A stretch of DNA of 64,000 nucleotides from Candidatus Bathyarchaeia archaeon (GCA_050013255.1 JBEKFP010000001.1:672001-736000), one strand, 5' to 3'. Positions 4,526 through 52,461 are shown, numbered from the stretch's first letter. The notes: generated from the letters alone by a model not told the origin. Made by a program: numbers and translations.

Positions 4526-4551
4526 GTGTCGGTCTAATGGCGTGCACTTAA
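4526..4551 (-). repeat. dispersed ~26-bp repeat, degenerate copy
   Basis: GTGTCGGTCTAATGGCGTGCAC resembles the reverse complement of GTGTGTGCGCACCATTAGACCCACAC. Confidence 0.65.
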
Positions 4552-4564
4552 CGATGGATTGAGC

Positions 4565-5044
4565 TTATCGGCCGGACATGATTGAGGCTAGGGTGAACAT
4601 TGTGCACCCCAACCCAAGAGGAACCAACCCAATCAACAAGAAAATTGCTGATAAGTTTGGCGCGGTCCTCGTTAGCGGTCGAAACAGCGAAAGGTAGAAT
4701 GAAAGTGAAATTTCTGCAGTGAACACCGAAAGTGTTAGAATCCCAAACAAAACTGCTGCTGCATTAGCTTTTGATTTCTCAAACGATAAAACTACAGCAG
4801 CTACAACAAAGGATGAAGCCATTGAAGCATTAGTTACGAATGGTGTCAACGCCCTAAGATAACCCGATCTGAAAGCTGCGCCTGCTCCACCATTTTCGGT
4901 GACTGCTCCCATCAAGATCGGGAGAAGTACCGAGAATGCAATCAATGCCAGTCCAACAATGGCCAAGAGAGCTTCAGGGAATCGTAGACGTGTGGAATGT
5001 TTCGTATCTTGATTATCGGGTTGTGTTGACGTTGATTTCACCAA
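4565..5044 (-). CDS. hypothetical 4-TM membrane protein
   Basis: four hydrophobic segments. Confidence 0.6.
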   Translation of the reverse strand: MVKSTSTQPDNQDTKHSTRLRFPEALLAIVGLALIAFSVLLPILMGAVTENGGAGAAFRSGYLRALTPFVTNASMASSFVVAAVVLSFEKSKANAAAVLFGILTLSVFTAEISLSFYLSLFRPLTRTAPNLSAIFLLIGLVPLGLGCTMFTLASIMSGR

Positions 5045-5093
5045 GCAGTCTCAGCGACCGCGGCATGGGTCGGCGTGAACATGATAGGGCGTG

Positions 5094-5381
5094 TTAGTTG
5101 ACGGCTTTCAGCTTTGTTTGCATCGTTGCAGGTTTGTCGCGCCTATCATCAATTTTCAAAGTGGTGACAACCCTCTTGGCACCCGTCTCGACGACCGCTA
5201 GGTGAGCTGCCTTCACTGCGTCAAGAATCTCATCAATGCTAGCAGCTTCAAGCGAAGTCCCATTAGGCCCTGAAACCGTTTTGAGCCCTGACTTCTTCAG
5301 ACTCGCCACTGCGACCCTGACGAACCGGCTGATGCTTGACCCTTCACCGAGAACTGAAACACTAACCTCTGCAACTATCAT
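5094..5381 (-). CDS. MTH1187/YkoF-like thiamine-binding protein
   Basis: MIVAEVSV...GPNGTSLE...RVVTTLKIDDRRDK; start placed at ATG 5381. Confidence 0.85.
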   Translation of the reverse strand: MIVAEVSVSVLGEGSSISRFVRVAVASLKKSGLKTVSGPNGTSLEAASIDEILDAVKAAHLAVVETGAKRVVTTLKIDDRRDKPATMQTKLKAVN

Positions 5382-5536
5382 CTTACGATCGGCAATACTA
5401 GAACGGACCCACCAAATATCTTCGCCGTTACTGACCGGGTGATAGGACTCTTGCCGTTGAAGACCGTCTATGTGACGAATCTCCGCACCTTTCTTCGCAT
5501 CCCTCACGATTAACTCCCGTTAAAGACGAAGTTGTT

Positions 5537-6598
5537 CTAGCCACCTATCTTGCTGCCACATTCAGTGCAGAAGTTGGCCACAGTTGGCAAGGGGGACCCG
5601 CAATTCATGCAATAATTCCTTTCCTTCGCCCTCATGATGCCTGTCTGCTGCTGTTTCTTTCTCTTGTTACGAGCGTTGAAGGCGAACACGGCCACGAGGA
5701 TGAGCGCAGCTGCTCCTAAACCCCCCAATACGGTCTGGGAGATTGCCTTGATTAGGGTCGAGGTCAATGAGGCACCAGAATTGTTGAGAGGTAGAGTTGA
5801 AAGCAGCTCGCCGTCCTTCCTCAGCTGCTGACCCGTGCCGGCGATTATGTCAGTAGGCCCCAAGACTGTAACACCGTAAGGAATCGCTACGTCGCATTCG
5901 GGTTTCTCTACACCGCAACCTGAAATTGCGTAAAGAAATTTCACCAGGTGCCACTCGTTCCGCGCATAATATGAGGGAGTTCTAAATTCAACAGGCCCCA
6001 AGCTTCCACTCGCCGTAGCTGAGTTACCTCCTTCCTCCGCTACAACGGAAACGGGGTCCCTTGAAACCGTCCACGGGTAGTTCAGTTTCGAAACGGTTTG
6101 CCCATCAAGTAGAAAGGCCCACCCATTTGTAACATTGGCCATGATCTGGTAGAGGTGCCACGCCCCTTCCTGGCCGACTGAATTTCTTGGGCCGATAGCA
6201 AAGTAGTAGTTAGGGACCTTCGCATCCGGCCAGTACTCCCAAAACCATCGTGCATCACCATTCTCAACCAAGTCGAAAGATCCCGAGCAGGTCGAATTTC
6301 CTCCAGAACTATACCCGTACATGCAATAGTTTCCGCTAGTTGCTAGGTCGTAACCGAACTGTATGAAAGATCCGTTTTGTAGATTGCTTCCGACCCAGAA
6401 CGCAGCGCCAAAATCTTGATCACCAAGGGTGGAGACATGGGTGCGAATTTCAACGCCAACCCCCATGTTCCCCCGAGAAGCACTATCAGCAAAAGCCCCA
6501 ACCTGAATACTATAGGCCGCCTGCGCCGTTGCCTGTGGCAGAAAAAGCAGGAACATTAACAACGCAATAACCGGGAGAATTCTACGAACGCGCAACAT
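5537..6598 (-). CDS. secreted, membrane-anchored glutamic-peptidase(G1)-like protein with C-terminal zinc ribbon
   Basis: signal peptide, FWVG...FIQFGY and SVVAEE, TM, CMNC...CTEC; paralogue of 51028..52410. Confidence 0.55.
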   Translation of the reverse strand: MLRVRRILPVIALLMFLLFLPQATAQAAYSIQVGAFADSASRGNMGVGVEIRTHVSTLGDQDFGAAFWVGSNLQNGSFIQFGYDLATSGNYCMYGYSSGGNSTCSGSFDLVENGDARWFWEYWPDAKVPNYYFAIGPRNSVGQEGAWHLYQIMANVTNGWAFLLDGQTVSKLNYPWTVSRDPVSVVAEEGGNSATASGSLGPVEFRTPSYYARNEWHLVKFLYAISGCGVEKPECDVAIPYGVTVLGPTDIIAGTGQQLRKDGELLSTLPLNNSGASLTSTLIKAISQTVLGGLGAAALILVAVFAFNARNKRKKQQQTGIMRAKERNYCMNCGSPLPTVANFCTECGSKIGG

Positions 6599-6718
6599 AC
6601 AAGCTCACTCTCAGCTTCCCCCTAATCATCTAATCGGCAGGGAGCTAGTTTTTGCTCGAAACTGTTCGAGGGCTTAGGAGTTGACGTGAAACTTAGGCTT
6701 GCCTTCCAAAACTAATAT

Positions 6719-7264
6719 ATGCCAAAGAAACCGGGCGGCACTAAGATCCTTTTGCCAGATGAGATAGTAGAAATTGACGGTCCGAATCATCTCTTCAAGG
6801 ACAATCTCCTAGACGGCCTCGTTGGGAGGTGGAATGTAACCGGAACAATCGCGGGCCAATCAATCACACATTTCTGCGAAGCTGACTGGGTCCTCAATCA
6901 TCAATTCTTGAGAGTCCACTTCATCGATGTGGAATCCAGAAGCCTTCAAGATCAACGAGACAACAAGGAGCATCAGCACGCTCCGTACGAAGCAATCGTC
7001 TTTGTTGGCTATGATAACATGAGTGAGCGTTACGTAGTTCACTGGCTCGATATCTTTGGCGGCCGCTTTTCCGAAACTTTGGGGTTTGGCGAAAGAGAAA
7101 ATAACGAATCGATCAAGTTTGCGTTCGAGTATCCATCTGGCCCTCTTCATAACACCTTTAGCAGGAATGCAGACAAAGACGCATGGTCAGTCGTCATCGA
7201 GCAGAAAGATGACAAGGGCAAATGGACAGTCTTTGCGAACGAGGTTCTTGAAAGGACTAAGTAG
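6719..7264 (+). CDS. DUF1579-like beta-barrel protein
   Basis: LVGRWNVTG, WVLNHQFL, GYDN...YVVHWLD pattern. Confidence 0.6.
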   Translation: MPKKPGGTKILLPDEIVEIDGPNHLFKDNLLDGLVGRWNVTGTIAGQSITHFCEADWVLNHQFLRVHFIDVESRSLQDQRDNKEHQHAPYEAIVFVGYDNMSERYVVHWLDIFGGRFSETLGFGERENNESIKFAFEYPSGPLHNTFSRNADKDAWSVVIEQKDDKGKWTVFANEVLERTK

Positions 7265-7287
7265 CAAACCGCGCAGCGGTGTAGTGG

Positions 7288-7372
7288 TGGTGGGTCTAAT
7301 GGTGCGCACACACACTTTTACTAACGACGGACGACGGTTCAAATTACGATGCCCGCACCATTAGAGGCAAAC
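7288..7372. repeat. inverted doublet of the dispersed repeat
   Basis: TGGTGGGTCTAATGGTGCGCACACAC (7288-7313) and CGCACCATTAGAGGCAAAC (7354-7372). Confidence 0.85.
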
Positions 7373-7484
7373 ACGCGAAACTGGCCGGTTGCGTATGAGG
7401 AACCAGCCAAAGACATGATTATCAGATGTAGCAATCGGCCGAAAGCAATCCATCCGACTTTTAACCAATAACACCCGAGCAATT

Positions 7485-7652
7485 ATGAAGAGCAAATTGA
7501 GGGTCGTCGAAGTTCGGAAGGATAAGACGATAGACCTCCCCGACAATGCTGTCCCAGTAAAACTGGAACAAGTAACCGAACCCACGGGACTCGTAAATCC
7601 CGCACCGTCTTCAGAAAGATTCGTCCTCTACTATCTTGAGAAAGAACGCTAA
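7485..7652 (+). CDS. unannotated 55-aa protein
   Basis: MKSKLRVVEVRKDKTIDLPDNAVPVKLEQVTEPTGLVNPAPSSERFVLYYLEKER; TTTTAA box about 25 nt upstream. Confidence 0.55.
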   Translation: MKSKLRVVEVRKDKTIDLPDNAVPVKLEQVTEPTGLVNPAPSSERFVLYYLEKER

Positions 7653-7721
7653 AGCCATCTCTGCATCAAGATTCCTTCTGACCGAAGACATCATACAAAG
7701 CAATGCGAAGGAGGTGAAATC

Positions 7722-8273
7722 ATGGCTAGAGTAGCACGCGAAATGGTAGTGAAGGCTGGCGTAAACGTCGACCAACTCCTCGACCTACTGGTCAGAAACG
7801 CGGCCGCTGAACTAACAACATTCTACTACTACACAATCCTCCGATGCAACCTAATCGGCCTGGAAGGCGAAGGAATCAAGCAACTCGCTGAGACAGCTCG
7901 AATTGAGGATCGCAATCACTTCGAAGCCCTCGTCCCACGCATATACGAACTCGGCGGCAAACTCCCAGACGACATGAAAACATTCCATGACTTGACCGCA
8001 TGCCCACCCGCTAGACTGCCCAAAGATCCAACGGATATCAAAGCAATGTTGACGGTGCTGGTAAATGCGGAAAGATGCGCAGTAGCCGGATACTCACACG
8101 TTTGCAACATTACCGCAGGCAAAGACCATCGCACATACGACCTATCCCTAGCAATTCTGAACGAGGAAGTGGAGCATGAATCATGGTTCAGCGAATTCCT
8201 AGGAGAAGGCCCATCCGGACACTTCATGCGGCAAGGCGACACGTCACCATTCGTATCGAAATTCCTGAAGTAG
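7722..8273 (+). CDS. dps: Dps-like (DpsL) ferritin-superfamily protein
   Basis: AAELTTFYYYTILR, EDRNHFE, AERCA, EEVEHE; SD GGAGGTGA upstream. Confidence 0.9.
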   Translation: MARVAREMVVKAGVNVDQLLDLLVRNAAAELTTFYYYTILRCNLIGLEGEGIKQLAETARIEDRNHFEALVPRIYELGGKLPDDMKTFHDLTACPPARLPKDPTDIKAMLTVLVNAERCAVAGYSHVCNITAGKDHRTYDLSLAILNEEVEHESWFSEFLGEGPSGHFMRQGDTSPFVSKFLK

Positions 8274-8337
8274 AAGTCGAATCAACATATTCGTCCAGCT
8301 AAACCTCTTCTTTTCTCGACGGTTTTTCTTGTTTTGT

Positions 8338-8451
8338 GTGTGTGCGCACAACTATACTCACACACATGCAATAGAGATGATTTTTTCCTAGATTGGGCTT
8401 TCCTGTAAATTGAGTAACCCGCCGGGTGTGATCTTAGTGGTGCGCACCCAG
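8338..8451. repeat. inverted doublet of the dispersed repeat
   Basis: GTGTGTGCGCACAACTATACTCACAC (8338-8363) and GTGTGATCTTAGTGGTGCGCACCCAG (8426-8451). Confidence 0.8.
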
Positions 8452-8522
8452 AGCTGAGTCCTGGCCGGTTAACCGTACCAAGGTCTTTCTAAGAGGGTTC
8501 TCCTATTGCGTCCAAGAATCTG

Positions 8523-9110
8523 ATGACCCCTGAGAAATCAGCCTCAGTAATCTCGCTCGTCTTCAACCCGGCCGTAACAGCGGCGTTCACATTCCTGATT
8601 CTGTTGTACCCTATGCGAAGCATGCAAACATTTCTCTTGCTGATGGCAACCTGTATCACATTTGGAACCATGGTCCCGCTTGTGATGATGTATCAACTTA
8701 CAAAACGCGGCCTCATTTCGGATTTCAATGTTTCAGAGAGGCAAGAACGGACAAAACCGTTCGTTGGAGCAGCAGTCAGCTATCTCGCCGGCAGTGGCGC
8801 TTTATTGTTGTTGAAAGCCCCAACCATAATCATCACATTGATGCTCTGCTACGCTTGCAACACGGTCATAATGCTGCTCATAACGCTTCGATGGAAGATC
8901 AGTATTCATGCGTCAGGCATCGCAGGTCCTACGACCGCTCTAGTCTACAGTATAGGTACGTGGGCTGCAGTTTTCTTTATCCTGCTCATCCCTGTTGGGT
9001 GGGCAAGAGTGCAACTAAAGGTGCACACTCCATGGCAGATATTCGCGGGAGCATTAGTGACCGCAATCGCGACATGGCTACAGCTGAAAATCTACTTCTC
9101 AATTCTCTGA
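8523..9110 (+). CDS. PAP2-like membrane phosphoesterase
   Basis: KISIH and WARVQLKVHT motifs, multi-TM. Confidence 0.7.
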   Translation: MTPEKSASVISLVFNPAVTAAFTFLILLYPMRSMQTFLLLMATCITFGTMVPLVMMYQLTKRGLISDFNVSERQERTKPFVGAAVSYLAGSGALLLLKAPTIIITLMLCYACNTVIMLLITLRWKISIHASGIAGPTTALVYSIGTWAAVFFILLIPVGWARVQLKVHTPWQIFAGALVTAIATWLQLKIYFSIL

Positions 9111-9136
9111 GTGGTTAACACTAAGAGGTATTCGCT

Positions 9137-9703
9137 TTGACCGAAAACACGCGCAAGGCCGTGCATCTCTTAGCTTTACTCGTCCCACCCGTCTCTGAAC
9201 TAACCTCGAAACCTTTAGTTCTGGCTGCGCTTTCCATAATCACAATTGCATATGTTCTTGGGGAAGTACTGCGCCTCAAAGGCCACCACTTGCCGATTAT
9301 CACGCCATTCACACTGAAGATGAGCCGGCCCGAAGAGAGAAGAAGCTTCATCATACGACCGGCATATCTCGCAATTGGTATCATTCTGGCGTTGGTCTTC
9401 TATCCCAGCACGATCGCTTATGCGTCAATATGCATCGGGGCGATCGGTGATTCTGCCGCTGCCATTGTGGGAGAGAGATTCGGTCACAGGCGAATTGTTA
9501 GGCGGAAGACGGTAGAGGGCTTTGCTGCAGGCTTGACCGCTGCTTTCCTTCTGGCTTCCTTTTTCGTCTCTCCTTTCATAGCTCTACTAGGTGCAGTCGG
9601 AGCTATGATTATGGAACTTCTCGATGTGCCAGATGACAACCTCACAATGCCAATCGTCGCGGGGGCATTGATGACTCTCGCGACTCTAACAGTCCGCTTA
9701 TAG
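9137..9703 (+). CDS. dolichol/phytol kinase family (SEC59/VTE5) protein
   Basis: RKAVH, GDSAAAIVGERFG, KTVEG, DDNLTMP. Confidence 0.8.
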   Translation: MTENTRKAVHLLALLVPPVSELTSKPLVLAALSIITIAYVLGEVLRLKGHHLPIITPFTLKMSRPEERRSFIIRPAYLAIGIILALVFYPSTIAYASICIGAIGDSAAAIVGERFGHRRIVRRKTVEGFAAGLTAAFLLASFFVSPFIALLGAVGAMIMELLDVPDDNLTMPIVAGALMTLATLTVRL

Positions 9704-9742
9704 CGGGCCCATTTGTGCTGTGTTATGTCGTGATGGGACATG

Positions 9743-9768
9743 GTGTGTGCGCACCATTAGACCCACAC
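9743..9768 (+). repeat. dispersed repeat, reference copy
   Basis: GTGTGTGCGCACCATTAGACCCACAC. Confidence 0.9.
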
Positions 9769-9854
9769 AGATGAAAACTGCACGATGCAAAAGTGGGTTC
9801 TGTTAAGAACTAGCGTGTTGGTTGACCGTTAAGCATCGGGGTGTTGAGGGTATC

Positions 9855-10205
9855 ATGTCTCAAGTTCCGTTGTATAAGGCTCTGTCAAAAATCGAAGGGT
9901 TCGGAGCGTTTGCCTCACGGCGAATAGAGAAAGAATCTCAAATTGCGGTTTGGGATGGACCTTATGCCCACGAACTGCCGAATGATGCTTCTGCGAAATA
10001 CTACTTGTATGTTAGACCGCATGTATATCTCGTAGGCTTCGGTGGGGATTACCCCGAATCTTTCATCAATCATTCCTGCAATCCGAATAGCAAAATCGTT
10101 TGGAACGGTGATATAGCGATTCTTGTTGCAATACGTGATATTGAACAGAACGAAGAGGTTACATTCGATTATGGGTCTGCAAGTTCATTATCGCCCGAGG
10201 GTTAG
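9855..10205 (+). CDS. SET-domain lysine methyltransferase
   Basis: GFGAFA, FINHSCNPN, EEVTFDY. Confidence 0.85.
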   Translation: MSQVPLYKALSKIEGFGAFASRRIEKESQIAVWDGPYAHELPNDASAKYYLYVRPHVYLVGFGGDYPESFINHSCNPNSKIVWNGDIAILVAIRDIEQNEEVTFDYGSASSLSPEG

Positions 10206-10291
10206 CAAGGATACCGAACACCCATCAACTTAACAGACCCCAAAAGTGTTAGTCATATATAGTGTTGAGTTTGATTAGGGCGGGATGCATT

Positions 10292-10585
10292 ATGCCTGTT
10301 GTTATGATAATGAATTGGAAAGGCCTCACCCGCGAACAGTATGAGGCCATGAGGAAACCCATCAACTGGGAAGGAAACGTACCCAAAGGGCTGCGATTCC
10401 ACGTAGCGGCGTTCGACGCGAACGGGGCACACGTCACCGATATCTGGGACACCGCCGATAACTTCAACGACTTCGTCAAGAGCAGGCTTATGCCAGGCGT
10501 GAAACAGCTCGGGTTTAAAGGCGAACCTCAGGTAGAAATCTACCCAACCCACGCCATCTTCACACCCGCCTACAACCCAAAGTAA
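10292..10585 (+). CDS. small alpha/beta-barrel (ABM-like) hypothetical protein
   Basis: PKGLRFHVA...VTDIWDT...F pattern. Confidence 0.6.
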   Translation: MPVVMIMNWKGLTREQYEAMRKPINWEGNVPKGLRFHVAAFDANGAHVTDIWDTADNFNDFVKSRLMPGVKQLGFKGEPQVEIYPTHAIFTPAYNPK

Positions 10586-10794
10586 GAACCCGAAGCTTCA
10601 GTGGGCGCCCCTAGCGTCAAGCTAAGTGTTCCCTCCCGGCGTACGGCTTCTAGCATCGTGTGATCACAGATCTCGCGGCCTGCGCTCCGGAAGGTCGTCC
10701 GTTCAATGTCCAACGCGAATTACGTTAGAAACGTAGCGGCTCGTTAAGAGTATGTAGTTCTAGTGGTGTTCATAATTTGAACTGCCATTTTCAT

Positions 10795-10820
10795 GTGTGT
10801 GCGCACCATTAGAGGCACAC
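10795..10820 (+). repeat. dispersed repeat copy
   Basis: GTGTGTGCGCACCATTAGAGGCACAC. Confidence 0.9.
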
Positions 10821-10884
10821 CACACGAAAAGACAGAAATGCGATCCATCGTATGGAGTACTGGGACGTCACCGGTTACAGATGA

Positions 10885-11304
10885 ATGATAACAGTCTCAG
10901 AATCCCTTGGCATCAGGGCCACAGCTGACAAAGTATGGGCCATCGTAAGAGATTTTGAGCATGTGAACCGTTGGGTCATTGATCTGGCGTCATCGGTACC
11001 TGAAGGTGAAGGCGTTGGAATGCTAAGGCATCTCATTCAAAGGGACGGGGCTCGAGTTCTTGAGCGTCTCGACTTGCTGGACGAATCCACCAAGACAATT
11101 GAATATCATATCGTGCAGTCGGACCTACCGTTCACTACCTATCGCTCAAGCATCAAAGTCAGGAGCACGGGTCCGGATTCTTGCGAGGTACTCTGGACAA
11201 GTGCCTTCGAACCGAAAGGAATAGACATCGACCAGATTTTGCAAACCCTCAAGACAAATTACCTGAGATATCTTGAAAGCCTCAGAAAGCTAACTTTAGC
11301 TTAG
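10885..11304 (+). CDS. SRPBCC/polyketide-cyclase-like protein
   Basis: ADKVWAIVRDF...W, GEGVGMLR, ERL. Confidence 0.8.
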   Translation: MITVSESLGIRATADKVWAIVRDFEHVNRWVIDLASSVPEGEGVGMLRHLIQRDGARVLERLDLLDESTKTIEYHIVQSDLPFTTYRSSIKVRSTGPDSCEVLWTSAFEPKGIDIDQILQTLKTNYLRYLESLRKLTLA

Positions 11305-11641
11305 ATAGAAGCGTGAGTTGCCTGATAGCCACAAAAATCGTTTGGAAGGAAAGAGGAACCATCTTAGTGTGGTTAGGCATTCTTCGACTTGTGTGAATTC
11401 GACAACCGAAGCGGCAATTGGAGCTATAGGGGAAAACAAAGTTGATGGCACTATCATCTAATACAGATGGAGCATAAGAAAGAGCTGCTCCGATTCCAAT
11501 TAATGGAAGCTCACAGCCATGGAACCAAGAGGACTTTGAAATCGAGGAGCTCATTCACGCGGGTAAGATCATTGTGATGGATGGAAAGAAGTGAAGGATC
11601 AGATCTACCGGCTGGAAAAGAATATCATGATTTAGTCGGCC

Positions 11642-11697
11642 GTCGCAACTTGAACCGTCGTCCGTCGTCGTTAGTAAAAGTGTATGTGGACGCATGA
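11642..11697. repeat. inverted copy of 7309-7350 plus degenerate repeat end
   Basis: TTGAACCGTCGTCCGTCGT(CGT)TAGTAAAAGTGT is the reverse complement of 7312-7342 with a 3-nt insertion. Confidence 0.8.
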
Positions 11698-11710
11698 TTC
11701 TAGCGGCTCG

Positions 11711-12175
11711 TCACGCCTGACGCATTGTTTGTAATTGTGCCGCTCGTTGTCTGAGAGCTACACTCATCTTGTCAAATTCATCTTTTGTGTTCTTTATTGT
11801 CTTTGACAGAAATGGTAGGAAAAGGCCGCTGAATTTCTCGCTTTGTACAAAGAGCACTCTCTCGCCACCCTGATTGTCTGAAATGGGTTTTATTTCAAAG
11901 ACATGTTCGCCATCGAACAGTCCGGGAATCCACAATTGCCCCTTCCAACGAAGTTCATGGCCCGGTTCCGCTACAAGTAATCTCACCGTGAATGAGGCTC
12001 CCTTACCGCTTTCAGTTCCCATGTAAACCTTCAACTTCGACCCTAAGCGGCGATCTTTGACTGCCTCCCGTATTTCACCTGGGACAAAGCCTGGGGAGCC
12101 GATTAGAAGCTGCCACACCTTATCAGGCGAAGAACCAATCTCTATTTCAGATCGGATCTCTTTCATTTTTCTCAC
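11711..12175 (-). CDS. SRPBCC-domain protein
   Basis: SPDKVWQLL, ELRWKG.LWIPGLFDGEH.F, QSEKFSG. Confidence 0.8.
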   Translation of the reverse strand: MRKMKEIRSEIEIGSSPDKVWQLLIGSPGFVPGEIREAVKDRRLGSKLKVYMGTESGKGASFTVRLLVAEPGHELRWKGQLWIPGLFDGEHVFEIKPISDNQGGERVLFVQSEKFSGLFLPFLSKTIKNTKDEFDKMSVALRQRAAQLQTMRQA

Positions 12176-12223
12176 TCATCCCTTCCGAATACGAATGCTA
12201 CTCATGAGATCGCACTAAGTAAT

Positions 12224-20537: not shown

Positions 20538-20745
20538 GTTAGGAAAAATAGGAATCATCTGTAATAACATCATATCGGAGGAGCGGATCAAATAGCTTAC
20601 GCAGGGGACAAGAAGAAACTCAGTGTTTCTGATGTTTCCAGTAGGCGTCGAATGCGGCCCACGAATTCTTGGAACAGTAAGACTCGTCACAGAGCGGAGC
20701 GATTAGGCTGAACACCTTTTCTAATGTCAGCGAGCGCCCATTCGC

Positions 20746-20910
20746 CTATCTCGTCAGTCTTCTTCCTAATCTGCGTAACCGTTTGCCGATTGTGAGACGC
20801 GCGCCCCTCGTATGTTTCCGGATGGCCCGCTTCGTTTTTCTTCCAGTATGAGCCCTTCTTTTCCTAGGTCTTCGTTTCCTGCTAACACGCCTTCTTGTTC
20901 GTCTTGCCAT
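20746..20910 (-). CDS. unannotated 54-aa Arg/Lys-rich protamine-like protein
   Basis: MARRTRRRVSRKRRPRKRRAHTGRKTKRAIRKHTRGARLTIGKRLRRLGRRLTR; BRE/TATA-like CGAAGTTTTATTT about 26-38 nt upstream. Confidence 0.65.
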   Translation of the reverse strand: MARRTRRRVSRKRRPRKRRAHTGRKTKRAIRKHTRGARLTIGKRLRRLGRRLTR

Positions 20911-21050
20911 GGGCGAACATTGCTCAATATGAAGGAAATAAAACTTCGCAGGTTTTATGAGACTAAACTCAGGGGGTGTTTAGGATCCGTTACAGAAGCC
21001 TATCCCGGATATTCGCAAAACCAAAATGCATGCCACCCGTCCTGATTCGC

Positions 21051-21518: not shown

Positions 21519-21586
21519 GATTCTAACCTTCGTTCATTTCGTAAATCCACTGAATCAAGTGTTGTTTGGCGGTTAAGGTTTCATGT

Positions 21587-21612
21587 GTGTGAGTCTAATG
21601 GTGCGAGCGTCG
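21587..21612 (-). repeat. dispersed repeat copy overlapping the DUF99 stop
   Basis: GTGTGAGTCTAATGGTGCG. Confidence 0.75.
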
Positions 21613-36108: not shown

Positions 36109-36139
36109 TCTATCAACTTAGACGGCTCTAGATTGTTGT

Positions 36140-36712
36140 GTGGTTTCGATGCCGGTTCTACGCCCAGGGGAAGTGTACAAGGAGGTTGTTTTGAGGGATG
36201 GTAGGAAGGCGGTTCTTAGGGTTCCTGAGTGGGGTGACCTGGACGACTTCCTAGGTTTGATAAACGGGTTAGTTGACGAACACGCCGACATTCTAAGAAG
36301 CACACACTCTACGCGGGGTGAGGAGGTTGAATGGTTAGCGGACCGGTTGACCGCGATAGAGAAGGGCAGCCTCATCGCGTTAGTTGCGGAAGTGAACGGG
36401 AGGGTTGTTGCAAGCTCGGACGTCGCCCAGAGGACTCCGGAAAACCCGCAACACAATCATGTTGGAGTCCTTGGCATCGCCATCCTCAAGACCGCCAGGG
36501 GGCTTGGGCTCGGAAAAGTGTTAATGGATTCACTCCTTAAACTCAGCAAAAAAGCAGGTTTGAAAATAATAATCCTGGACATGTTCGCCACTAACAAGGT
36601 GGCAAGGCGCCTATACGAAAAGGCCGGATTCGTAGAGGTCGGGAAGATACCTAAAGCCATCAACCAACACGGAAAATACATTGACCTGATCCGGTTCGCC
36701 ATCGAAACCTGA
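36140..36712 (+). CDS. GNAT N-acetyltransferase
   Basis: ARGLGLGK, N..ARRLYEKAGF. Confidence 0.85.
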   Translation: MVSMPVLRPGEVYKEVVLRDGRKAVLRVPEWGDLDDFLGLINGLVDEHADILRSTHSTRGEEVEWLADRLTAIEKGSLIALVAEVNGRVVASSDVAQRTPENPQHNHVGVLGIAILKTARGLGLGKVLMDSLLKLSKKAGLKIIILDMFATNKVARRLYEKAGFVEVGKIPKAINQHGKYIDLIRFAIET

Positions 36713-36738
36713 AAGCAGATTTGACTATTAATTTACGT

Positions 36739-38310
36739 CTAGAACAGTTTGTCTTTGTCCATGAGCACTTCGCCGTCTGAGTATCTCTGGCCGTACATTT
36801 TCCTGATGATGAGAAAACGCCTGGTCCTCTCCGCTAGTGGTTTTTCGAATATTTCAATTACTCCGTCGAAGAAGTCGATGATACTTTGCGTTTCCTCCTT
36901 TGTTGTGGTCAAGGGGTTGAGGGTCGCTATGATCGTGAAACCCTCAGCCTTGCGTTTTCCGACAAAATCCGTTAACCACCTCCGGGTTAGGACGGACTTA
37001 TGGCGAAGCAACAAATCAGATAAAATATCTATGATCATAATCCGCTTGGTGGCCTTTTCCTTTGCGATAACATCCTTGAGGGCTAGAGCCAATGATATGT
37101 TGGCGTCGTTAAAGTTCTCAAAGCTCGGTATCTTCAACAGGTTCGGGCCATGGATGATTCTGTCCGCCTGCGGGGATAAGGCGTAGAACCCGTTCGGGTA
37201 CCTAGACGTCAGGTCCTCGGTCCTGCCGATATCATTCGAGAGAAAAATCGCTAACTTTCCAGATGATAAGGCTGAGTTAACGACTCTCCTCAGGAGCAGG
37301 TCCCTCTCATCATAAGATGGAGAGACGATGACGACACCGAATTTTTCAGGGATGCCCCCACCCAACGCCTTGTCCAAGTCCGCGTAACCCGTCGAGACGA
37401 TTGTTGGTGCTTGAACGACCTTTGGCGGGACGATGGTCTTTGCGGGAACGATGGGTTGCGGTGAAACGGTGTCTTTCCTAGGTACTTGAATCACTGCTGG
37501 GCGTGGTGGATGCTCCTCTATCCTCCTTTCCTCTTTCAAGGTGGCTCGTGGGTGTTCCTCTTTCAATTTGGCGGCAAGAGATGGCTTTCTTCTTCTCGCG
37601 ACAACCAAGACACCGGCGACTATCGCGACCGCAGCAGCTACGAGCAAACCTAAGCTCCCAAACGGAAGACCGACCTGGCCAACTTGGGGAATCGTTGATG
37701 TCAAAATCAATAACTTGGTCGTGGATTCAGTAGCATTACCGTATGACGCAACCAACGTTGTGACGGCTGTCCGTATTGACCAGGCGCCCGCAACGAATCC
37801 AGGACTAAAATTGAACATCCATGCAATGAATTGTCCGGCCTCAGGGGCAACCCAGTCTCCCTGACCGGCGACACCTTTTTGGTGGTACAGCGCTTGGAAT
37901 TGGAAGGTGGGCGCTGTGCCTTCACTGTTACAGCCGGCATTATCGGCCTTAGCAAAAGCGGTTGTGATGTAGAAATCAGACGGAAGAGTGCCAAAATTAG
38001 TCCAATTTACATGAAAACTCTGCGCCGCGATTGCATTAAACTCGATTTTTTGATAGGGTTTTGATAGGGCTCCAGATCCGCAGGTACTGAGGTCGAACTC
38101 AATCGGTCTGGAACCTTGACTACCGAGATAGCCAGACGTGGTCTCTGTAACGTAACTGGTTGTAGCAGCGTAGGTGTACAGTACCGTGGTCGTGGCTTGG
38201 GTTGTAGAGGTTACGTAACCCTGGCCCGACACCTTTGGCGGCATAGCACTGAGTGCTGGAAGCAGAGCTAGAATCAGCAGAAGAGCGAAAGCGATGCGGC
38301 ACCAGTGCAT
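36739..38310 (-). CDS. single-pass membrane protein with cytoplasmic degenerate KaiC-like domain
   Basis: signal peptide, extracellular beta domain, TM, STGYADLDKALGGG, P-loop replaced by SPSYDERD. Confidence 0.75.
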   Translation of the reverse strand: MHWCRIAFALLLILALLPALSAMPPKVSGQGYVTSTTQATTTVLYTYAATTSYVTETTSGYLGSQGSRPIEFDLSTCGSGALSKPYQKIEFNAIAAQSFHVNWTNFGTLPSDFYITTAFAKADNAGCNSEGTAPTFQFQALYHQKGVAGQGDWVAPEAGQFIAWMFNFSPGFVAGAWSIRTAVTTLVASYGNATESTTKLLILTSTIPQVGQVGLPFGSLGLLVAAAVAIVAGVLVVARRRKPSLAAKLKEEHPRATLKEERRIEEHPPRPAVIQVPRKDTVSPQPIVPAKTIVPPKVVQAPTIVSTGYADLDKALGGGIPEKFGVVIVSPSYDERDLLLRRVVNSALSSGKLAIFLSNDIGRTEDLTSRYPNGFYALSPQADRIIHGPNLLKIPSFENFNDANISLALALKDVIAKEKATKRIMIIDILSDLLLRHKSVLTRRWLTDFVGKRKAEGFTIIATLNPLTTTKEETQSIIDFFDGVIEIFEKPLAERTRRFLIIRKMYGQRYSDGEVLMDKDKLF

Positions 38311-38372
38311 GAAGACGCCTTGCTATCGATTCGCATTTAATTCTTGGGACAGACGAGACGTCAGGCTATAAC

Positions 38373-39026
38373 TCATGGCATGTTCTTGGTTCTTTCCGAG
38401 TTGGGCATTCGGACCTTCAGGATTTTGAATCCTAATTGGACTGCTGGGCCTATGGCGAGGGCGGATACTAGCGTTCCGAGCCATGCGGGCCCCCCTAGCA
38501 ACCAACCGACCACGACCACGCTTATCTCGATTATTGTGCGCGCGATTCGCACGCTAGTTTTCCCGAGGCGTGACAGCGCGAGCATCAAAGTGTCCCTCGG
38601 CCCAGCCCCAGCGTTCACTCCAATGTAGATCGCGGTCGCAAATCCCATGATCAAAACGCCGAGGAGCAGGTATCCCAACTGAACGAGGACGGAACCGGGA
38701 ACAAGCGGAACGTAGGGCCTCAGGACGTCGACCCATACGCCGATGAAGATCATGTTCGCGACCGTCCCCCAACCCAACGGCTCTTTGAGGGCTACGTCGA
38801 CGAGAATTATGATGAACGCGACGCCAATGTTGGATTCGCCAAGCGTGATCGGTAAATGGTACGTTAACGCCATTTGGAGAACGTCCCAGGGGTCCAAGCC
38901 TAGGCTCGCCTGAACCATCACATCAATCGCCAACCCGAAGAGCAGAAAACCAATTTGAATAACGAAGAAGTCCCAGGCGAACCGCCTCCAACCCACCCAA
39001 CTGAACTTGAAGAACCTACTGTTCAT
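38373..39026 (-). CDS. YczE/YitT-like membrane protein
   Basis: LGLDPWDVL, GAGPRDTLM, GTLVSALAIGP. Confidence 0.8.
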   Translation of the reverse strand: MNSRFFKFSWVGWRRFAWDFFVIQIGFLLFGLAIDVMVQASLGLDPWDVLQMALTYHLPITLGESNIGVAFIIILVDVALKEPLGWGTVANMIFIGVWVDVLRPYVPLVPGSVLVQLGYLLLGVLIMGFATAIYIGVNAGAGPRDTLMLALSRLGKTSVRIARTIIEISVVVVGWLLGGPAWLGTLVSALAIGPAVQLGFKILKVRMPNSERTKNMP

Positions 39027-39159
39027 GGTTCGCAAGTCTGAACACCTGCCCGCAGAGTCTCCATTCTTCCATGGCGCATTGTCCGTTAGGTTTCGTATGG
39101 GGGCGCCTTCCAGCTGTGTTCTTCATATAGATGTGCCAGTCTTGGTGGGAGCGGTTCCC

Positions 39160-39678
39160 TTGGGTTCCCGCATCTTGCTCTGCATCTGTTTGATTGCAGG
39201 AGTACTGCTCATGATGATTTCAAGTTCCAATGTCGCGGCGCAAAGCTGCCAAAAGGTGACCGTTTCATCCAATTATCCTGAGCAGGCCGCTCCGAAAGAA
39301 CAGGTACAAGTGACTACGACCATAGCCGGCTCATGTACCTCGGGCCCCGAAGACTACTTCTCGGTGAGAGTGGATGTTACGGATCGTGTTTCCAAGGCTC
39401 TACTCTCATCGAACAGCGGTCCGATAGGCTACAGTACCACCAATTTCTCAGTGAACGTACAGAATTCAGTGACAACGCCAACAGGCAATCTGACGTGGCT
39501 AATAGAAATCGATAGTTACCTGATTATAGACGCGCAGGAATCCCATTTGAATTCAACAACAGGCAGGATTCAAGTTGGCAGCACGCCCATACCTGAATTC
39601 CAGGCCGCCCAACCGATCGTACTCCTACTAGCATTAGCCGCAACATTAAGCCTGAACCGACGGAAACTTCCCAAATAA
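39160..39678 (+). CDS. secreted protein with PEF-CTERM-like sorting tail
   Basis: signal peptide; ends PIPEF-hydrophobic-RRK; start approximate. Confidence 0.7.
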   Translation: MGSRILLCICLIAGVLLMMISSSNVAAQSCQKVTVSSNYPEQAAPKEQVQVTTTIAGSCTSGPEDYFSVRVDVTDRVSKALLSSNSGPIGYSTTNFSVNVQNSVTTPTGNLTWLIEIDSYLIIDAQESHLNSTTGRIQVGSTPIPEFQAAQPIVLLLALAATLSLNRRKLPK

Positions 39679-39813
39679 CGCGGGGGGCCAACTTTTCCGC
39701 GGACTGTGCGCCTTGAATCGCTTCCTCACATGCCCTGCCTTCCTGAGGAAGAATAAGGCCGAATCCCAAATTCGATCAGCTCGTTTTCTTACCTAAACGA
39801 ACTGGCAGAAAAC

Positions 39814-39839
39814 ATCTGTGCGCACCATTAGCCCCGCAC
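39814..39839 (+). repeat. dispersed repeat copy
   Basis: TGTGCGCACCATTAGCCCCGCAC. Confidence 0.85.
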
Positions 39840-40742: not shown

Positions 40743-40942
40743 CGCGGGGAAGATGGCGTTTGTCCGTATCTCGTTCTTCAGGTGGTTTGACGATTCGCTG
40801 CTGCGAGTAGCTTGGCAAGAAAGTGGGTAGAAAAGGGCGAGGAGTTCGCTTGATTCTACTAGGCCTTAGGGCGTTCGAAAGACACATTACTTTATACCTG
40901 CAAATTCCGAAACACGTTTCGAACACTATCGGCGCAGGCAGA

Positions 40943-42340
40943 ATGGATAAGTTAAAACCTAGAGCATTTGTTTCGTTTCTTTTGCTTCTAGCAATATGCA
41001 TTTCATTATTGTCTATACCAAACGCGAACAGTCAATCAGCCGCGGTAACGACCACGACTACTATTGAGCAGCCTCCCTCGGGTCAGTGTGCCGAAATTTC
41101 GCTTGCTTTCTCAGCGCGAGCAGGCCAGGAATTAGCGGGAACATTTTCGTCGGATGCATCAATCAGTTTCTACATTCTATCCCCGGCAGATTTTGATGCC
41201 ATCAGAAATCCAAATTGCAGTCTTCCATCAAGCGCAAGACCACTTTACAGCCAAACGAACTCAGTCGGCCATGATAATCCATACCGCACCCTAGTCTTCC
41301 CGTCCAACGGAACTTATTACATCGTTTTCGTCCTCCTAAACAGCAGCCAGGCTGAGCTCGCCAGTGGTTTTGCAACTGTTGAAGTGAGCTTCCCAGCTTC
41401 CACAATTTTCATCACGACCGAAGCCTCTTACACGATAAGCTCATCTAGCATAATCGTAAGGACAACTCAAAGCACAACTGAAAGCGCGACGGTTGCGTCC
41501 ACCGGCCCATCTTTCGGAACGTTCGGACTGATCGGATTGGTTGTTGCGGTGGGTCTGATAGCTTCAGTCATGGTGTTCATGAAGCGAGGAAAGTCACAGA
41601 CAGGGCAGAAAGTGGTCCTGAAACAGGAGACTGTAAAGAAAGAAGTTAGGCCTGAAAGCCCGCAGCCGAAACCGGGCCCGGCGGGACAGAATATCTCCAC
41701 AGGCTATCCCGAACTAGATACCATGTTGGCCGGAGGCCTTCCGCTCGGGCTTAGCATAGTTCTGACGGGCCCACCCTGCGATGAAAAAAACCTGATTCTC
41801 AGCCGTTTCTTGGAAACGAATCTGATATCCGGCCGCGAATGCATTTTCATTTCAACCTCACTTGACCGCGTTCGCGAAATGCTTTCGAAACACAAGAACC
41901 TCCATGTAATCCTCTGCAACCCGCAAGCTGAAACCATCGCTGCTCCCTATCCGGAAGTCGTCAAAATCAAAACCGTGGACAGCCTGATTCAGATCAATTT
42001 GGAATATGACGTCGCGGCGGGTGGTTTGAGTTCAGGAAAATCAGCAATTCTTTGCTTGGAGATCTTGGATGACGTGCTTCTTGAGCACCACGCGGCAACG
42101 AGGAGATGGCTCATGGACATTCTGGGGAGGGGCAAGGGAATTCAAATGACCTGCTTGGCGACGCTTAATCCGGCAATGCACTCCACACAGGAATTACAAG
42201 CCATTCTGGAAACATTCGACGGCCACATCGACCTGTACGAGGCCGCGGTCCAAGGGCGACCAAAACTAATCCAAGTCAGAAAGCTTGGGGGACGAACGTT
42301 CCTTGACAGCGAAGTACGCGTAGAGAAAGACCGAATATGA
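40943..42340 (+). CDS. single-pass membrane protein with degenerate KaiC-like domain
   Basis: signal peptide, TM, STGYPELDTMLAGG, GPPCDEKN; paralogue of 36739..38310. Confidence 0.75.
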   Translation: MDKLKPRAFVSFLLLLAICISLLSIPNANSQSAAVTTTTTIEQPPSGQCAEISLAFSARAGQELAGTFSSDASISFYILSPADFDAIRNPNCSLPSSARPLYSQTNSVGHDNPYRTLVFPSNGTYYIVFVLLNSSQAELASGFATVEVSFPASTIFITTEASYTISSSSIIVRTTQSTTESATVASTGPSFGTFGLIGLVVAVGLIASVMVFMKRGKSQTGQKVVLKQETVKKEVRPESPQPKPGPAGQNISTGYPELDTMLAGGLPLGLSIVLTGPPCDEKNLILSRFLETNLISGRECIFISTSLDRVREMLSKHKNLHVILCNPQAETIAAPYPEVVKIKTVDSLIQINLEYDVAAGGLSSGKSAILCLEILDDVLLEHHAATRRWLMDILGRGKGIQMTCLATLNPAMHSTQELQAILETFDGHIDLYEAAVQGRPKLIQVRKLGGRTFLDSEVRVEKDRI

Positions 42341-43846: not shown

Positions 43847-44204
43847 CGGAGTCTGAATAGTCAGTGAGATGAGTGAAAGTGCTCAGCAAACTTCTTGCGC
43901 TATATGAGACGGGAAACTTACTCTTCGGAAGTCTGAGGAGAGGAGCCGACATGACGACTAGCCATCCACACAGTACGCACCAAGCCACGAGACTACCCCG
44001 CCCTGCACAGCGCAATTGTAGGCTCGTAATTCAAGTACGCGAACCCGATCTTGCGAATACAAGAGATTGCCTGGTTCAAATTTGGCTGCCCGCACCACCA
44101 TACCGGGGATATTACATAGGGCTCATTTTCTGATGGCCACGTGGAAAAGGCTTAGGGGACGTGGAAATCCACATGTAACCACGTTGTCAAGTTTGAGAAA
44201 CCAA

Positions 44205-50398: not shown

Positions 50399-50824
50399 TT
50401 AACCAAATACTCTTGAAATGATTACGGCGGCCACAAACACTTCTCCGACAAAAGCTCCGACATACAGTAATGTGAACACAGCATCGAGGAGCTGTAATGG
50501 CGCGACGATCCCGTACTTGAGGAATGTGAGAAGAAATCCGGAGGCTAGGAACATGAGCGCAACTCCCAACCCCAACTTCTCGGCCTTTTGTTGTACTCTG
50601 GTTAGCCCTGCCAAAGCGCCGAGGAGACCTGCAGAGGCGGCGAACAGGGTTATTCCCAAAGGAGATAGCTCAAGTAATGGGAGATTTGAATTTGTAGGCG
50701 TAAATGGCCTCGGAATCTGCAAAAACCAATTGAGGTTCCAATAGGTGAGCCAACACGCCAAGGCCGTCGCTGCCAGAATCAGTAGTGTCAACGTTGCGGG
50801 AATCTCAGTGCGCCAATTCTTCAT
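50399..50824 (-). CDS. hypothetical 4-TM membrane protein
   Basis: four hydrophobic segments. Confidence 0.6.
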   Translation of the reverse strand: MKNWRTEIPATLTLLILAATALACWLTYWNLNWFLQIPRPFTPTNSNLPLLELSPLGITLFAASAGLLGALAGLTRVQQKAEKLGLGVALMFLASGFLLTFLKYGIVAPLQLLDAVFTLLYVGAFVGEVFVAAVIISRVFG

Positions 50825-50930
50825 GAGCTACCCCTCCGCCTAACTGCGATTCGCTCTGCCCTTTCATATAGATTCCAAGTATTCGGCAAAACCCTCGTAG
50901 CAGGTAGAGTCGTTTGTGTCGTTAGAAAGC

Positions 50931-50964
50931 GTGTTGTTGTGGGTAGGCTGGTGTGCACACACAC
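50931..50964 (-). repeat. dispersed repeat, left arm of inverted pair
   Basis: GTGTTGTTGTGGGTAGGCTGGTGTGCACACACAC. Confidence 0.8.
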
Positions 50965-51027
50965 GACGAAACTGTAGCACTAAATATGCCCAGGTTTCAA
51001 GATAGACAGCCGCGTTGAGGTGTTCTC

Positions 51028-52410
51028 GTGAGAATTGAGCCGCGACTTGAGTTACTGATACTGATTGCTGTTTTCTTTCTCATCCTTGTGCCTAATGTAC
51101 GCGCTTTCACTTTCGAGCCTCAAGTAGGCGTTTGGGGGGACGATTCCTCAAGAGGAAATATGGGAGTGTCTGTCGAGATTCGAACCCATATCTACCCTAC
51201 GAATCCGGGGGACTTCCAGTATTTCTGGGTTGGTGATAACCTGAACAATGGTGCGTTCATTCAGTTCGGCTACATTTACGAGCCGGGATATTATTGCTTG
51301 AATGGCCAGACGGTTGGCGGGAAGTTCACATGTCTAGGTGATTCCGATCACATTGGAGGGTCGGATGCGCGTTGGGAATGGCAGTATTGGCCCAATAGTA
51401 ATGTTAATGACTTCTCTTATGGAAAAGGACCAGCAAACTCGGCCGGACTTGATGGGACATGGCACAAGTATTCAATTGAGCCGAACACTAGAGGAGGTTG
51501 GAGTTTCGTACTTGATGGTCGAGAGGTCTCGTACGTTACAAATGTGTGGACCCGATCCAAGGACGCAGCGTATTTTGTGGCGGAGAAGGGCAGCAATACG
51601 TACGCAACGCTTGGCCGATTAGGGCCAGTCGAATTTAGAAACCTAGCGTACCTCAAAGACGATGGCTGGCACTATGCAACAACGCTGTCTGCGCTGGTAG
51701 GGTGCGCTGTAAACACAAATTGCAACATCAATATCCCCTACGGCGTAATGTCGGAGGGCGCAGGTATTGTGATCGCAGGGAGCGGGATTCAGCGACCGAG
51801 CGACCTCGATTTGTTATGGACTGGGGTTGTTGGTGGCGTGACGTTGACTCTTGATCTGCCGAATAATGTTACTGTCAGAATAGATGACCAGTTTATGCGA
51901 TCTGGTTATTCTCAGCTGTCTCTTTCACGAGGACCGCATACGATCGAGGTACCTCAAGATTCCGCCATCGATTCGAATAACAGGCTTAGGTTCGACCATT
52001 GGAGTGATGGGTCAGTTTCTTTGAATCGGACGTTTACGTTAAACTCTGACACAACACTCAAGGCAATCTATGTTACGCAACACTGGCTAACTATCAATTC
52101 AGTTGTGCCCATGAACGGTTCAGCGTGGTATGACGAAGAATCAACCGTATCTTTCTCGAAACCGACTTCAATCCTGATTCATGCTGACCTCGGAATCCTA
52201 GGTGGTCAGTGGACATTTGACGGATGGTACGAGGACGGAGTCTATTTAACGAGTTCAACCAGCAGTTCCATTGTTATGGATAGACCGCACACTTTGCAAC
52301 TTCACTGGCATCAGAATTACGCAATTCCCCTTGCGATTGTGGCACTTCTGGCTCTGGTGGGTTTTGTTACGGCCTTGGTAGTCAAAAGAAGACGTGAGAA
52401 GTCAGAATAG
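51028..52410 (+). CDS. G1-peptidase-like secreted protein with beta-repeat stalk and TM anchor
   Basis: FWVGDNLNNGAFIQFGY, YFVAE, FDHWSDG/FDGWY repeats, TM-KRRR. Confidence 0.6.
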   Translation: MRIEPRLELLILIAVFFLILVPNVRAFTFEPQVGVWGDDSSRGNMGVSVEIRTHIYPTNPGDFQYFWVGDNLNNGAFIQFGYIYEPGYYCLNGQTVGGKFTCLGDSDHIGGSDARWEWQYWPNSNVNDFSYGKGPANSAGLDGTWHKYSIEPNTRGGWSFVLDGREVSYVTNVWTRSKDAAYFVAEKGSNTYATLGRLGPVEFRNLAYLKDDGWHYATTLSALVGCAVNTNCNINIPYGVMSEGAGIVIAGSGIQRPSDLDLLWTGVVGGVTLTLDLPNNVTVRIDDQFMRSGYSQLSLSRGPHTIEVPQDSAIDSNNRLRFDHWSDGSVSLNRTFTLNSDTTLKAIYVTQHWLTINSVVPMNGSAWYDEESTVSFSKPTSILIHADLGILGGQWTFDGWYEDGVYLTSSTSSSIVMDRPHTLQLHWHQNYAIPLAIVALLALVGFVTALVVKRRREKSE

Positions 52411-52427
52411 CGAGGCGCGCCTAGAGT

Positions 52428-52461
52428 GTGTGTGTGCGCACCACTGATACCACAACAACAC
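52428..52461 (+). repeat. dispersed repeat, right arm of inverted pair
   Basis: GTGTGTGTGCGCACCACTGATACCACAACAACAC. Confidence 0.8.

Follow-up and report, generated by a model that had tools for sequence, protein, structure and literature searches.

Accessory-gene cassettes in a Bathyarchaeia genome are bordered by sites that resemble casposase targets

Introduction

Casposons are rare, large, self-replicating transposons that have been proposed as the ancestors of the adaptation module of CRISPR systems. In the pdif modules of Acinetobacter, genes are packaged between short sites that often alternate in orientation. Integron gene-cassette arrays have been reported in Archaea (PMC9668308). 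The casposons of Methanosarcina mazei generate a 14-bp target duplication with a variable centre and a CGCA start that overlaps the last 4 bp of a tRNA-Leu gene; in vitro, the M. mazei casposase requires ~30 bp of upstream tRNA sequence, and mutation of CGCA or of bp 12-17 upstream abolishes integration; casposons also insert in tandem at one site, with a duplication shared between elements (PMC6977970, PMC4779613). Here, we describe a dispersed repeat in a 64,000-nt stretch of the genome of Candidatus Bathyarchaeia archaeon (GCA_050013255.1 JBEKFP010000001.1:672001-736000), hereafter the window, which equals C1:672001-736000 in a genome of 2.46 Mb, 50% G+C and three contigs. The repeat lies at the borders of small accessory-gene cassettes, and we estimate a probability of roughly two in three (0.66) that its copies are footprints of a Cas1-type transposase, or casposase. 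The link between the sites and casposases is well supported, but movement of the single cassettes by these enzymes is a proposal.

The closest known systems are the family 2 casposons, represented by those of M. mazei (MetMaz, 6OPM) and Aciduliprofundum boonei (AciBoo-C1). The Bathyarchaeia system shares with these a Cas1-solo protein of ~400 amino acids with a C-terminal extension and an E-H-E triad, a 14-bp target segment with CGCA at its start, placed at the 3' end of a tRNA or tRNA-like sequence, inverted-repeat ends, and apparent tandem insertion at one site. It differs in that most of its units are only 0.1-3.4 kb long and carry ordinary accessory genes but no casposase, in the absence of PolB from its casposase-bearing regions, in targets that are mostly tRNA mimics, many of them located in the ends of units, and in its arrays of many units, whose flanking cores are often unlike or inverted. 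A search of the available literature collection returned no description of enzyme-less casposon cassettes, miniature casposons or Bathyarchaeia casposons.

A repeated site with the layout of a casposase target

An initial annotation of the window had listed 13 copies of a ~26-bp site and called for a genome-wide scan with a weight matrix. A 40-nt matrix trained on copies from the whole genome, with cores called at >=12 bits, recovered 11 of the 13, against 0.25 expected in shuffled sequence, and thereby bears out the repeat as real; the matrix cores start at 4531-, 7293-, 7354+, 8345+, 8431-, 9750+, 10802+, 21592-, 39821+, 50942- and 52437+. Simpler patterns agree, as the exact 26-mer with <=3 mismatches has 3 matches in the window (0 expected) and the arm TGTGCGCACMA with <=1 mismatch has 13 (1.85 expected). 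Near 11680 the listed copy proved to combine a cassette tip with a decayed core behind it (11691-11704) that falls under the matrix threshold, the one near 40645 is a tip-like fragment alone and found no support, and an additional copy, absent from the list, is present at 44074-44104. The annotation was right that the cdc6-to-glyA block holds no full copy, since the scan found none within 21605-39821, where Cdc6, the PolD large subunit and SHMT are encoded. Genome-wide there are ~82 copies, grouped into about a dozen arrays with ~1 kb spacing, and 67 are intergenic, although intergenic DNA makes up only ~12.5% of the genome. The exact 20-mer also occurs in about ten metagenome-assembled genomes (MAGs) of Bathyarchaeia from soil and peat. 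Separately, a perfect 12-bp palindrome, TTGTGCGCACAA, occurs twice in the window (31550-31562 and 63986-63998); it shares TGTGCGCAC with the repeat but has no CCA, variable part or CACAC tip, and was rejected as a member.

Each site is built around a 14-nt core consisting of CGCACCA, ~4 variable bases and AYC, and CGCA starts the core in nearly all copies. This corrects the initial annotation: the invariant piece is CGCACCA, and ~4 variable bases plus AYC follow it, rather than an arm followed by 6 variable bp. To the right of the core comes CACACAC(AC)-(G/T)AAAA. The left flank is of two kinds. In the 33 A-type copies it reads TTTT..GTGTGTGTG, the mirror image of the right flank; the inverted repeats of these sites measure 12-14 bp and enclose a 14-nt loop. 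The GTGTG...CACAC bracket attributed earlier to the whole family is confined to these copies, and the other 49 of the 82, the B-type copies, carry in place of GTGTG a leader, aaaACGACGGTTCAAATT-N5-GCY, which together with CGCACCA mimics the 3' end of a tRNA: TTCAAAT, which resembles a T-loop, exactly 13 nt, then CCA. A real tRNA-Gln gene at C1:1132371-1132498 has the same ending and spacing (GGTTCAAATCCCGGCGGCCGCACCA). In the B-type consensus the conserved leader block is positioned 9-18 nt upstream of CGCA. Compared as sequences, the sites here follow the same grammar as the published casposase targets.

The mimics are not themselves tRNA genes. By inspection the halves of their T-stems do not pair, neither Aragorn nor the Rfam tRNA searches call them, no Rfam family attains its gathering score in the window, and none, tRNA included, matches around the copy at 44074-44104 at E values up to 1. 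As an aside on tRNA genes proper, the Rfam model finds only 19 in this genome, which is rated 100% complete, and most tRNAs called by Aragorn carry introns; many tRNA genes of this organism must be unusual (with multiple or odd introns, or split) or have been missed.

Two casposases and the elements that carry them

The genome encodes two Cas1 proteins of 404 and 407 amino acids, and no Cas2, Cas4 or PolB gene adjoins either of them. For both, the best solved relative is the M. mazei casposase 6OPM, which aligns over the full length with 262 and 253 bits, compared with <=83 bits for CRISPR Cas1 proteins. The catalytic residues of 6OPM, E162, H232 and E247, are kept in both, within VEG, FLHE and EEPFR, and both casposases are intact. 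Their loci, C3:231179-232390 and C1:1333438-1334640, fall within stretches that are rich in sites (C3 221-239 kb and C1 1324-1358 kb). The initial annotation had noted that the window holds no cognate recombinase, and the cassettes of the window indeed encode no casposase either. Among the neighbours, a TIR-domain gene directly follows the casposase on C3, and the second casposase sits amid a 16-kb defence-type stretch (C1:1330000-1347000) with genes for AIPR abortive-infection, N6/N4 DNA methylase, DndB-like and GHKL-ATPase-like proteins.

One casposase-bearing element, on C3, has the full signature of a transposon. On the minus strand the order is a tRNA-like leader, CGCACCAGCATACC, CCGCCCCCGCCGCCGCC, 10,965 bp, GGCGGCGGCGGGGGCGG, a second CGCACCAGCATACC, and then a CACAC-tipped cassette. 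The 10,965-bp element, which includes the casposase and the TIR-domain gene and has no reading frame longer than 487 amino acids, is thus bounded by perfect 14-bp direct repeats and has 17-bp perfect inverted ends. The tips of the gene cassettes likewise form inverted repeats, CACACAC(G)AAAA / TTTT(C)GTGTGTG, and in the relative designated G014 a casposase resides within a CACAC-tipped unit of 2.8 kb, with cores on both sides. At least one casposase clade therefore travels with tips like those of the gene cassettes.

By analogy with the M. mazei system, the 14-nt core would be the target segment that a casposase duplicates on insertion, the CGCA at its start corresponding to the last acceptor-stem bases and the discriminator of a tRNA, and the tRNA-3'-end mimic upstream (GGTTCAAATT-N5-GCC) would serve as the recognition leader. 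The CACACAC...GTGTGTG sequences would be the inverted-repeat tips of inserted units. Most units would then be small cassettes of one or two accessory genes, without an enzyme of their own and moved in trans by the two casposases. Some units bear a leader-plus-core pad in their own ends, which could allow further units to land beside or inside them, and such portable pads would give rise to repeat-gene-repeat arrays away from real tRNA genes.

The array in the window

Between 6.7 and 11.3 kb the window contains a run of small plus-strand genes of unrelated functions (DUF1579, ferritin-like, PAP2-like, cytidylyltransferase-like, SET-domain and SRPBCC) with sites in between. The features of this array and of the other copies in the window are as follows.

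4531-4544, minus strand: degenerate core CACGCCATTAGACC, 21.2 bits, conserved at the syntenic position in the relative G014
7293-7306, minus strand: core CGCACCATTAGACC, 40.9 bits, whose CGCA end abuts the tip of the next unit
7307-7353, plus strand: cassette tip CACACAC-TTTT and tRNA-3'-end mimic leader GGTTCAAATT-N5-GCC, with the 13-nt spacing from TTCAAAT to CCA
7354-7367, plus strand: core CGCACCATTAGAGG, first copy of a candidate target-site duplication
7368-8344, plus strand: ferritin-like gene cassette (Pfam Ferritin) with tips CAAACACGCGAAA...TTTTGTGTGTGTG
8345-8358, plus strand: core CGCACAACTATACT, 37.4 bits
8359-8430, no strand assigned: 72-nt non-coding mini unit with CACAC/GTGTG tips
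8431-8444, minus strand: core CGCACCACTAAGAT, inverted relative to its neighbour, 12.7 bits, an exact pattern match
8445-9749, plus strand: two-gene cassette encoding weakly PAP2-like and cytidylyltransferase-like membrane proteins
9750-9763, plus strand: core CGCACCATTAGACC, 41.4 bits, an exact 26-mer
9764-10801, plus strand: SET-domain gene and a second cassette, fused and without tips; 14-nt inverted repeat at the outer ends, CACACAGATGAAAA / TTTTCATGTGTGTG
10802-10815, plus strand: core CGCACCATTAGAGG, second copy of the candidate duplication
10816-11688, plus strand: SRPBCC (polyketide-cyclase-like) cassette, in which the tip plus leader of 7307-7353 recurs in inverted form as the right end (11638-11688)
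11691-11704, plus strand: decayed core CGCATGATTCTAGC, 9/14
21592-21639, minus strand: tip, degenerate leader and core CGCACCATTAGACT, 42.2 bits, heading a PEMT-like methyltransferase cassette (Pfam)
39821-39834, plus strand: solitary core CGCACCATTAGCCC, 31.7 bits, followed by tip CGCACACAC
44074-44104, plus strand: tRNA-mimic leader and core CGCACCACCATACC, with no cassette tip behind
50942-50955, minus strand: core CACACCAGCCTACC, 23.2 bits, left border of a one-gene cassette
50956-52436, plus strand: cassette with a 460-amino-acid gene of no known family and tips CACACACGACGAAA...AGAGTGTGTGTGTG
52437-52450, plus strand: core CGCACCACTGATAC, 34.9 bits, right border of the same cassette

The heptamer of the CGCACCATTAGAGG core has just two copies in the genome, at 7354 and 10802, in direct orientation and 3448 nt apart. 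They enclose a 3.4-kb composite insert that comprises the ferritin-like cassette, the mini unit, the two-gene cassette and the SET-domain gene. In terms of the casposase model, the array could have grown by insertion next to the leader while the older, distal duplicate at 11691-11704 decays, this order of events being read from the layout. The copy at 44074-44104 is apparently an unoccupied landing pad. The PEMT-like cassette headed by the site at 21592-21639 is placed between the gene for the PolD small subunit and cdc6.

The gene families enriched near the sites are KaiC-like ATPases with degenerate P-loops, which were considered as mobilizing enzymes and judged to be cargo. This KaiC/RecA-like family numbers nine paralogues in the genome, most of them inside cassette arrays, and its members occur as ~233-amino-acid proteins or fused to TPR or N-terminal regions; examples lie at C1:344464-345171, C1:1329501-1330202 and C2:588926-593592, and in the window at 36739-38310 and 40823-42340. 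An open frame that begins MKSL after four of the sites was rejected as a gene family, as it is a 4-21-codon piece of a longer repeat.

Cassettes in other species

The initial annotation had placed the sites at the borders of accessory genes and had proposed testing whether gene content changes there. Both points hold in a search of the window array against 30 relatives (designated by G numbers), where homology breaks at the CACAC/GTGTG tips. Segments 7372-8337, 8473-9688, 9796-10239 and 10241-10657 are found singly, in other contexts, in other species of the genus. The ferritin-like cassette is also present in G004, G014, G018, G002 and G003, and there the homology stops at the tips; the two-gene cassette (8445-9749) is 90% identical in G002 and G003, and the 10241-10657 part is 95% identical in G004 and G011. 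In alignments of the ferritin-like cassette from three genomes and of 10241-10657 from G004, G007 and G011, homology runs from CACAC(G)AAA to TTTTGTGTG, whereas the adjoining 14-nt cores vary by copy. Because cores vary between copies of one cassette, the tips are part of the cassette and the cores are part of its site. Cassette identity amounts to 85-95% (G011, G002, G003, G013 and G016), compared with ~70% for the CysRS, PolD small-subunit or Cdc6 genes of the same genomes, a difference that argues for recent transfer of cassettes between species, as judged from sequence identity.

At the 21592 site, the homology shared with G018 ends at ~21642, immediately beyond the tip, and G011 lacks a site there. 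In the closest relative, G014, 228 nt take the place of a 6.7-kb block (window 5534-12217) that comprises the array together with a zinc-ribbon gene, the DUF1579 gene and one more gene; the flanks are 90-92% identical, and in this comparison of an empty with a filled locus the borders of the missing block do not lie at sites. A further difference of 945 bp relative to G014, at 20538-21482, has the appearance of a microhomology deletion in G014, and at 37.5-43 kb and 48.5-54.5 kb synteny is lost in the nearest relatives. The stretch that separates cdc6 from the PolD small-subunit gene (window 20538-21752) is a hot spot: it measures 149 nt in G011, 2.75 kb in G018 (G018:C2:1791508-1794261) and 9.25 kb in G002 (G002:C4:60934-70185), its content differs in each, and in none does it hold the motif.

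Twenty peat or wetland metagenomes from 19 studies contain the array, with 84-97% of sampled words present. In contigs assembled from four metagenome runs, the sole well-supported joint connects 5492 to 12218, the G014-like form; joints whose sides measure 26-27 nt are repeat matches from other loci, and contigs break at 7313. In four peat or wetland metagenomes, cassette pieces 9201-9688, 10218-10618 and 7010-7410 show a summed contig depth of ~60-360x, compared with ~14-55x around them, and a contig of 466 nt (9201-9666) shares 96% identity with the window; copies of these cassettes hence reside in more abundant members of the community.

Distribution across Bathyarchaeia

The pattern CGCACCA-N7-CACAC is present in 23/23 genomes of the genus, with 2-54 copies each. 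Outside the genus its occurrence in the class is patchy, in that 10 of 151 sampled genomes have >=3 copies, and a reversed control pattern is found almost never. Casposase genes or fragments occur in 6 of these 10 motif-bearing genomes, compared with 4 of the 141 others. Such genes or fragments lie within a few kb of sites in G149:C7, G061:C269, G143:C14 and G014:C8/C3, and ~11 kb away in G117:C1. This co-occurrence supports the link of sites to casposases but is not proof of it, as related genomes are non-independent and MAGs often are without mobile DNA.

Assembly of the arrays and competing explanations

If insertion duplicates the core, identical cores would be expected near each other in direct orientation, and rare core variants do cluster locally. 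Within 12 kb there are 8 identical rare-core pairs, against 2.0 expected (p=0.0035), and 6 are in direct orientation, against 1.07 expected (0/2000 permutations); the pair at window 7354/10802 is one of these. Several other observations weigh against a casposase as the source of the arrays. The two cores that flank a single cassette mostly differ; in 43 pairs of adjacent cores the variable heptamers show no greater similarity than those of distant pairs (p=0.58), and neighbouring cores are oriented in all ways (18 direct, 16 convergent and 8 divergent pairs), so that a scheme of one cassette, one insertion and one 14-bp direct duplication predicts neither the unlike cores nor the mixed orientation. 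No near-identical copies of a cassette exist within the genome, and the three best-scoring full-length casposase genes of G017, when compared, are 77-82% identical and have no common flanks. The C3 element has a composite make-up, an additional GC-rich tip lying inside it, and its tips are unlike the CACAC tips of the cassettes. No PolB domain was detected among the Pfam-scanned genes of either casposase region, and no casposase was found in the near-complete genomes G018 and G016, with 31 and 21 sites. Possible sources of the irregular cores are flipping of the 14-nt core as the loop of a 12-14-bp inverted repeat formed by two tips, pads in the long inverted ends of larger units, which would give leaders that face each other, and homologous recombination among repeats.

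In one rival explanation, the sites did originate with casposons, but the shuffling of today is chiefly the work of homologous recombination, gene conversion and hairpin template switching between the ~40-bp repeats, and not of continuing Cas1 transposition of single cassettes. Besides the dissimilarity of adjacent cores and the relatives with many sites in which no casposase was found, this explanation accommodates the variation of tips among orthologous copies of a cassette with interiors 88-95% identical, the identical 14-mers in inverted orientation at C1 257237(+)/257867(-), and the A-type sites with their inverted repeats around a 14-nt loop. It is also consistent with contig C39 of G014 (reverse strand 3350-3590 and 7510-7750), where two direct copies of a 98-nt unit, composed in order of tip, core, tip plus leader, core and tip, are 99% identical and lie 4.17 kb apart; a duplication of 14 bp would be far shorter. 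It does not predict the excess of rare-heptamer direct pairs or the intact casposases inside tip-bounded units, and the leader block has been kept at the very position that is critical in vitro for the M. mazei enzyme, which suggests ongoing selection for recognition. We regard mainly recombinational shuffling of cassettes as unlikely, if worth keeping in view.

The initial annotation favoured a different enzyme, a tyrosine recombinase of the Xer or integrase type acting on sites of 11-6-11 architecture, with cassettes shuffled in the manner of pdif modules or integron cassettes. Its notion of cassettes stands, as the sites do bound mobile accessory genes that are exchanged between species, and orientation often does alternate along arrays, with a variable site centre between conserved flanks; the mechanism is improbable. 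The consensus contains no dyad of ~11-bp arms around a 6-8-bp spacer, the second arm matching the reverse complement of the first at 5/11 positions, in agreement with the earlier remark that this arm is not dif-like. The tRNA-end string CGCA accounts for the 8-9/11 match of the first arm to the Escherichia coli XerC arm. Canonical attC features (RYYYAAC/GTTRRRY) were not seen, all Rfam families stay below their thresholds in the window, and inverted-repeat tips beside 14-bp direct repeats are features of transposons. A search for a co-occurring XerA-like or HUH/RAYT gene, proposed at the outset, yielded just three tyrosine recombinases in the genome, none near an array and two adjoining ordinary tRNA genes, and no match to the Y1/RAYT family (RAYT, REP-associated tyrosine transposase; PF01797), to which control genomes responded. 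In a genome rated 100% complete, this last result counts against selfish palindromes of the REP (repetitive extragenic palindromic)/REPIN kind, also raised in the annotation, or of the MITE (miniature inverted-repeat transposable element) kind, which would accumulate between accessory genes without a part in moving them. That view draws on the palindromic A-type copies, the inverted pairs 50-65 nt apart that resemble REPINs, the mostly intergenic placement, and copy numbers of 2 to 54 among species of the genus. We nonetheless consider it very improbable, as cross-genome cassette homology begins and ends at the tips, which hence travel with the genes, and cores differ between copies as expected of a target, unlike an element. 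Least probable of all is a promoter or regulator site of co-regulated genes. Here the leader's TTCAAATT does stand ~33 nt before ATG triplets after several sites, but those ATGs open frames of just 4-21 codons, the downstream gene shares the strand of the site in 38 cases and lies on the other in 29, which leaves no constant relation to gene starts, and gene content changes at the sites; the regulon that the annotation had set against its own proposal thus has little in its favour.

Relation to other systems and implications

Functionally the arrays are reminiscent of integron cassettes and pdif modules, although they lack the features that define either. They recall integrons in their runs of one-gene cassettes of diverse functions, in their short, imperfectly palindromic sites, in cassettes shared across species and in arrays that in some cases have no enzyme nearby. 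Unlike integrons, they have no IntI-type integrase near them, no attC R/L boxes were seen on inspection of the site consensus, and they possess inverted-repeat tips and a tRNA-end-like site; their chemistry would be transposition with target duplication and not conservative strand exchange. As in CRISPR arrays, a leader would precede a short repeat, and each insertion by a Cas1-family enzyme would duplicate that repeat and leave the inserts separated by repeats; but the inserts are tipped gene cassettes in the kilobase range and not spacers of 30-40 bp, the repeat is 14 bp, and the Cas1 genes have no Cas2 or effector genes as neighbours. The pdif modules are likewise bounded by short sites of often alternating orientation, yet the sites here are not of the XerC/XerD 11-6-11 type and no recombinase gene lies near any array. 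REP/REPIN-RAYT systems also consist of short intergenic palindromes, often in inverted pairs; here no RAYT gene accompanies them, and the palindrome arms belong to neighbouring gene cassettes.

The broadest interpretation is an integron-like platform for gene capture in Bathyarchaeia, operated by a Cas1-family transposase, with enzyme-less cassettes of ordinary genes stacked at portable pads of a tRNA-mimic leader plus a 14-bp repeat and exchanged between species. Such a platform would be a living intermediate that links casposons to CRISPR arrays, genes taking the place of spacers. We hold this tentatively, at somewhat less than even odds. If it is true, the casposase would be the engine of a gene-cassette system of dozens of enzyme-less units, shared among species of peat Bathyarchaeia and carrying ferritin-like, SET-domain, SRPBCC, lipid-modifying, KaiC-like and defence genes. 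It would represent a third route to accessory-gene arrays, besides integrons and pdif modules, and leader-repeat-insert arrays would be built by Cas1 chemistry outside CRISPR, with a bearing on how the CRISPR array originated.

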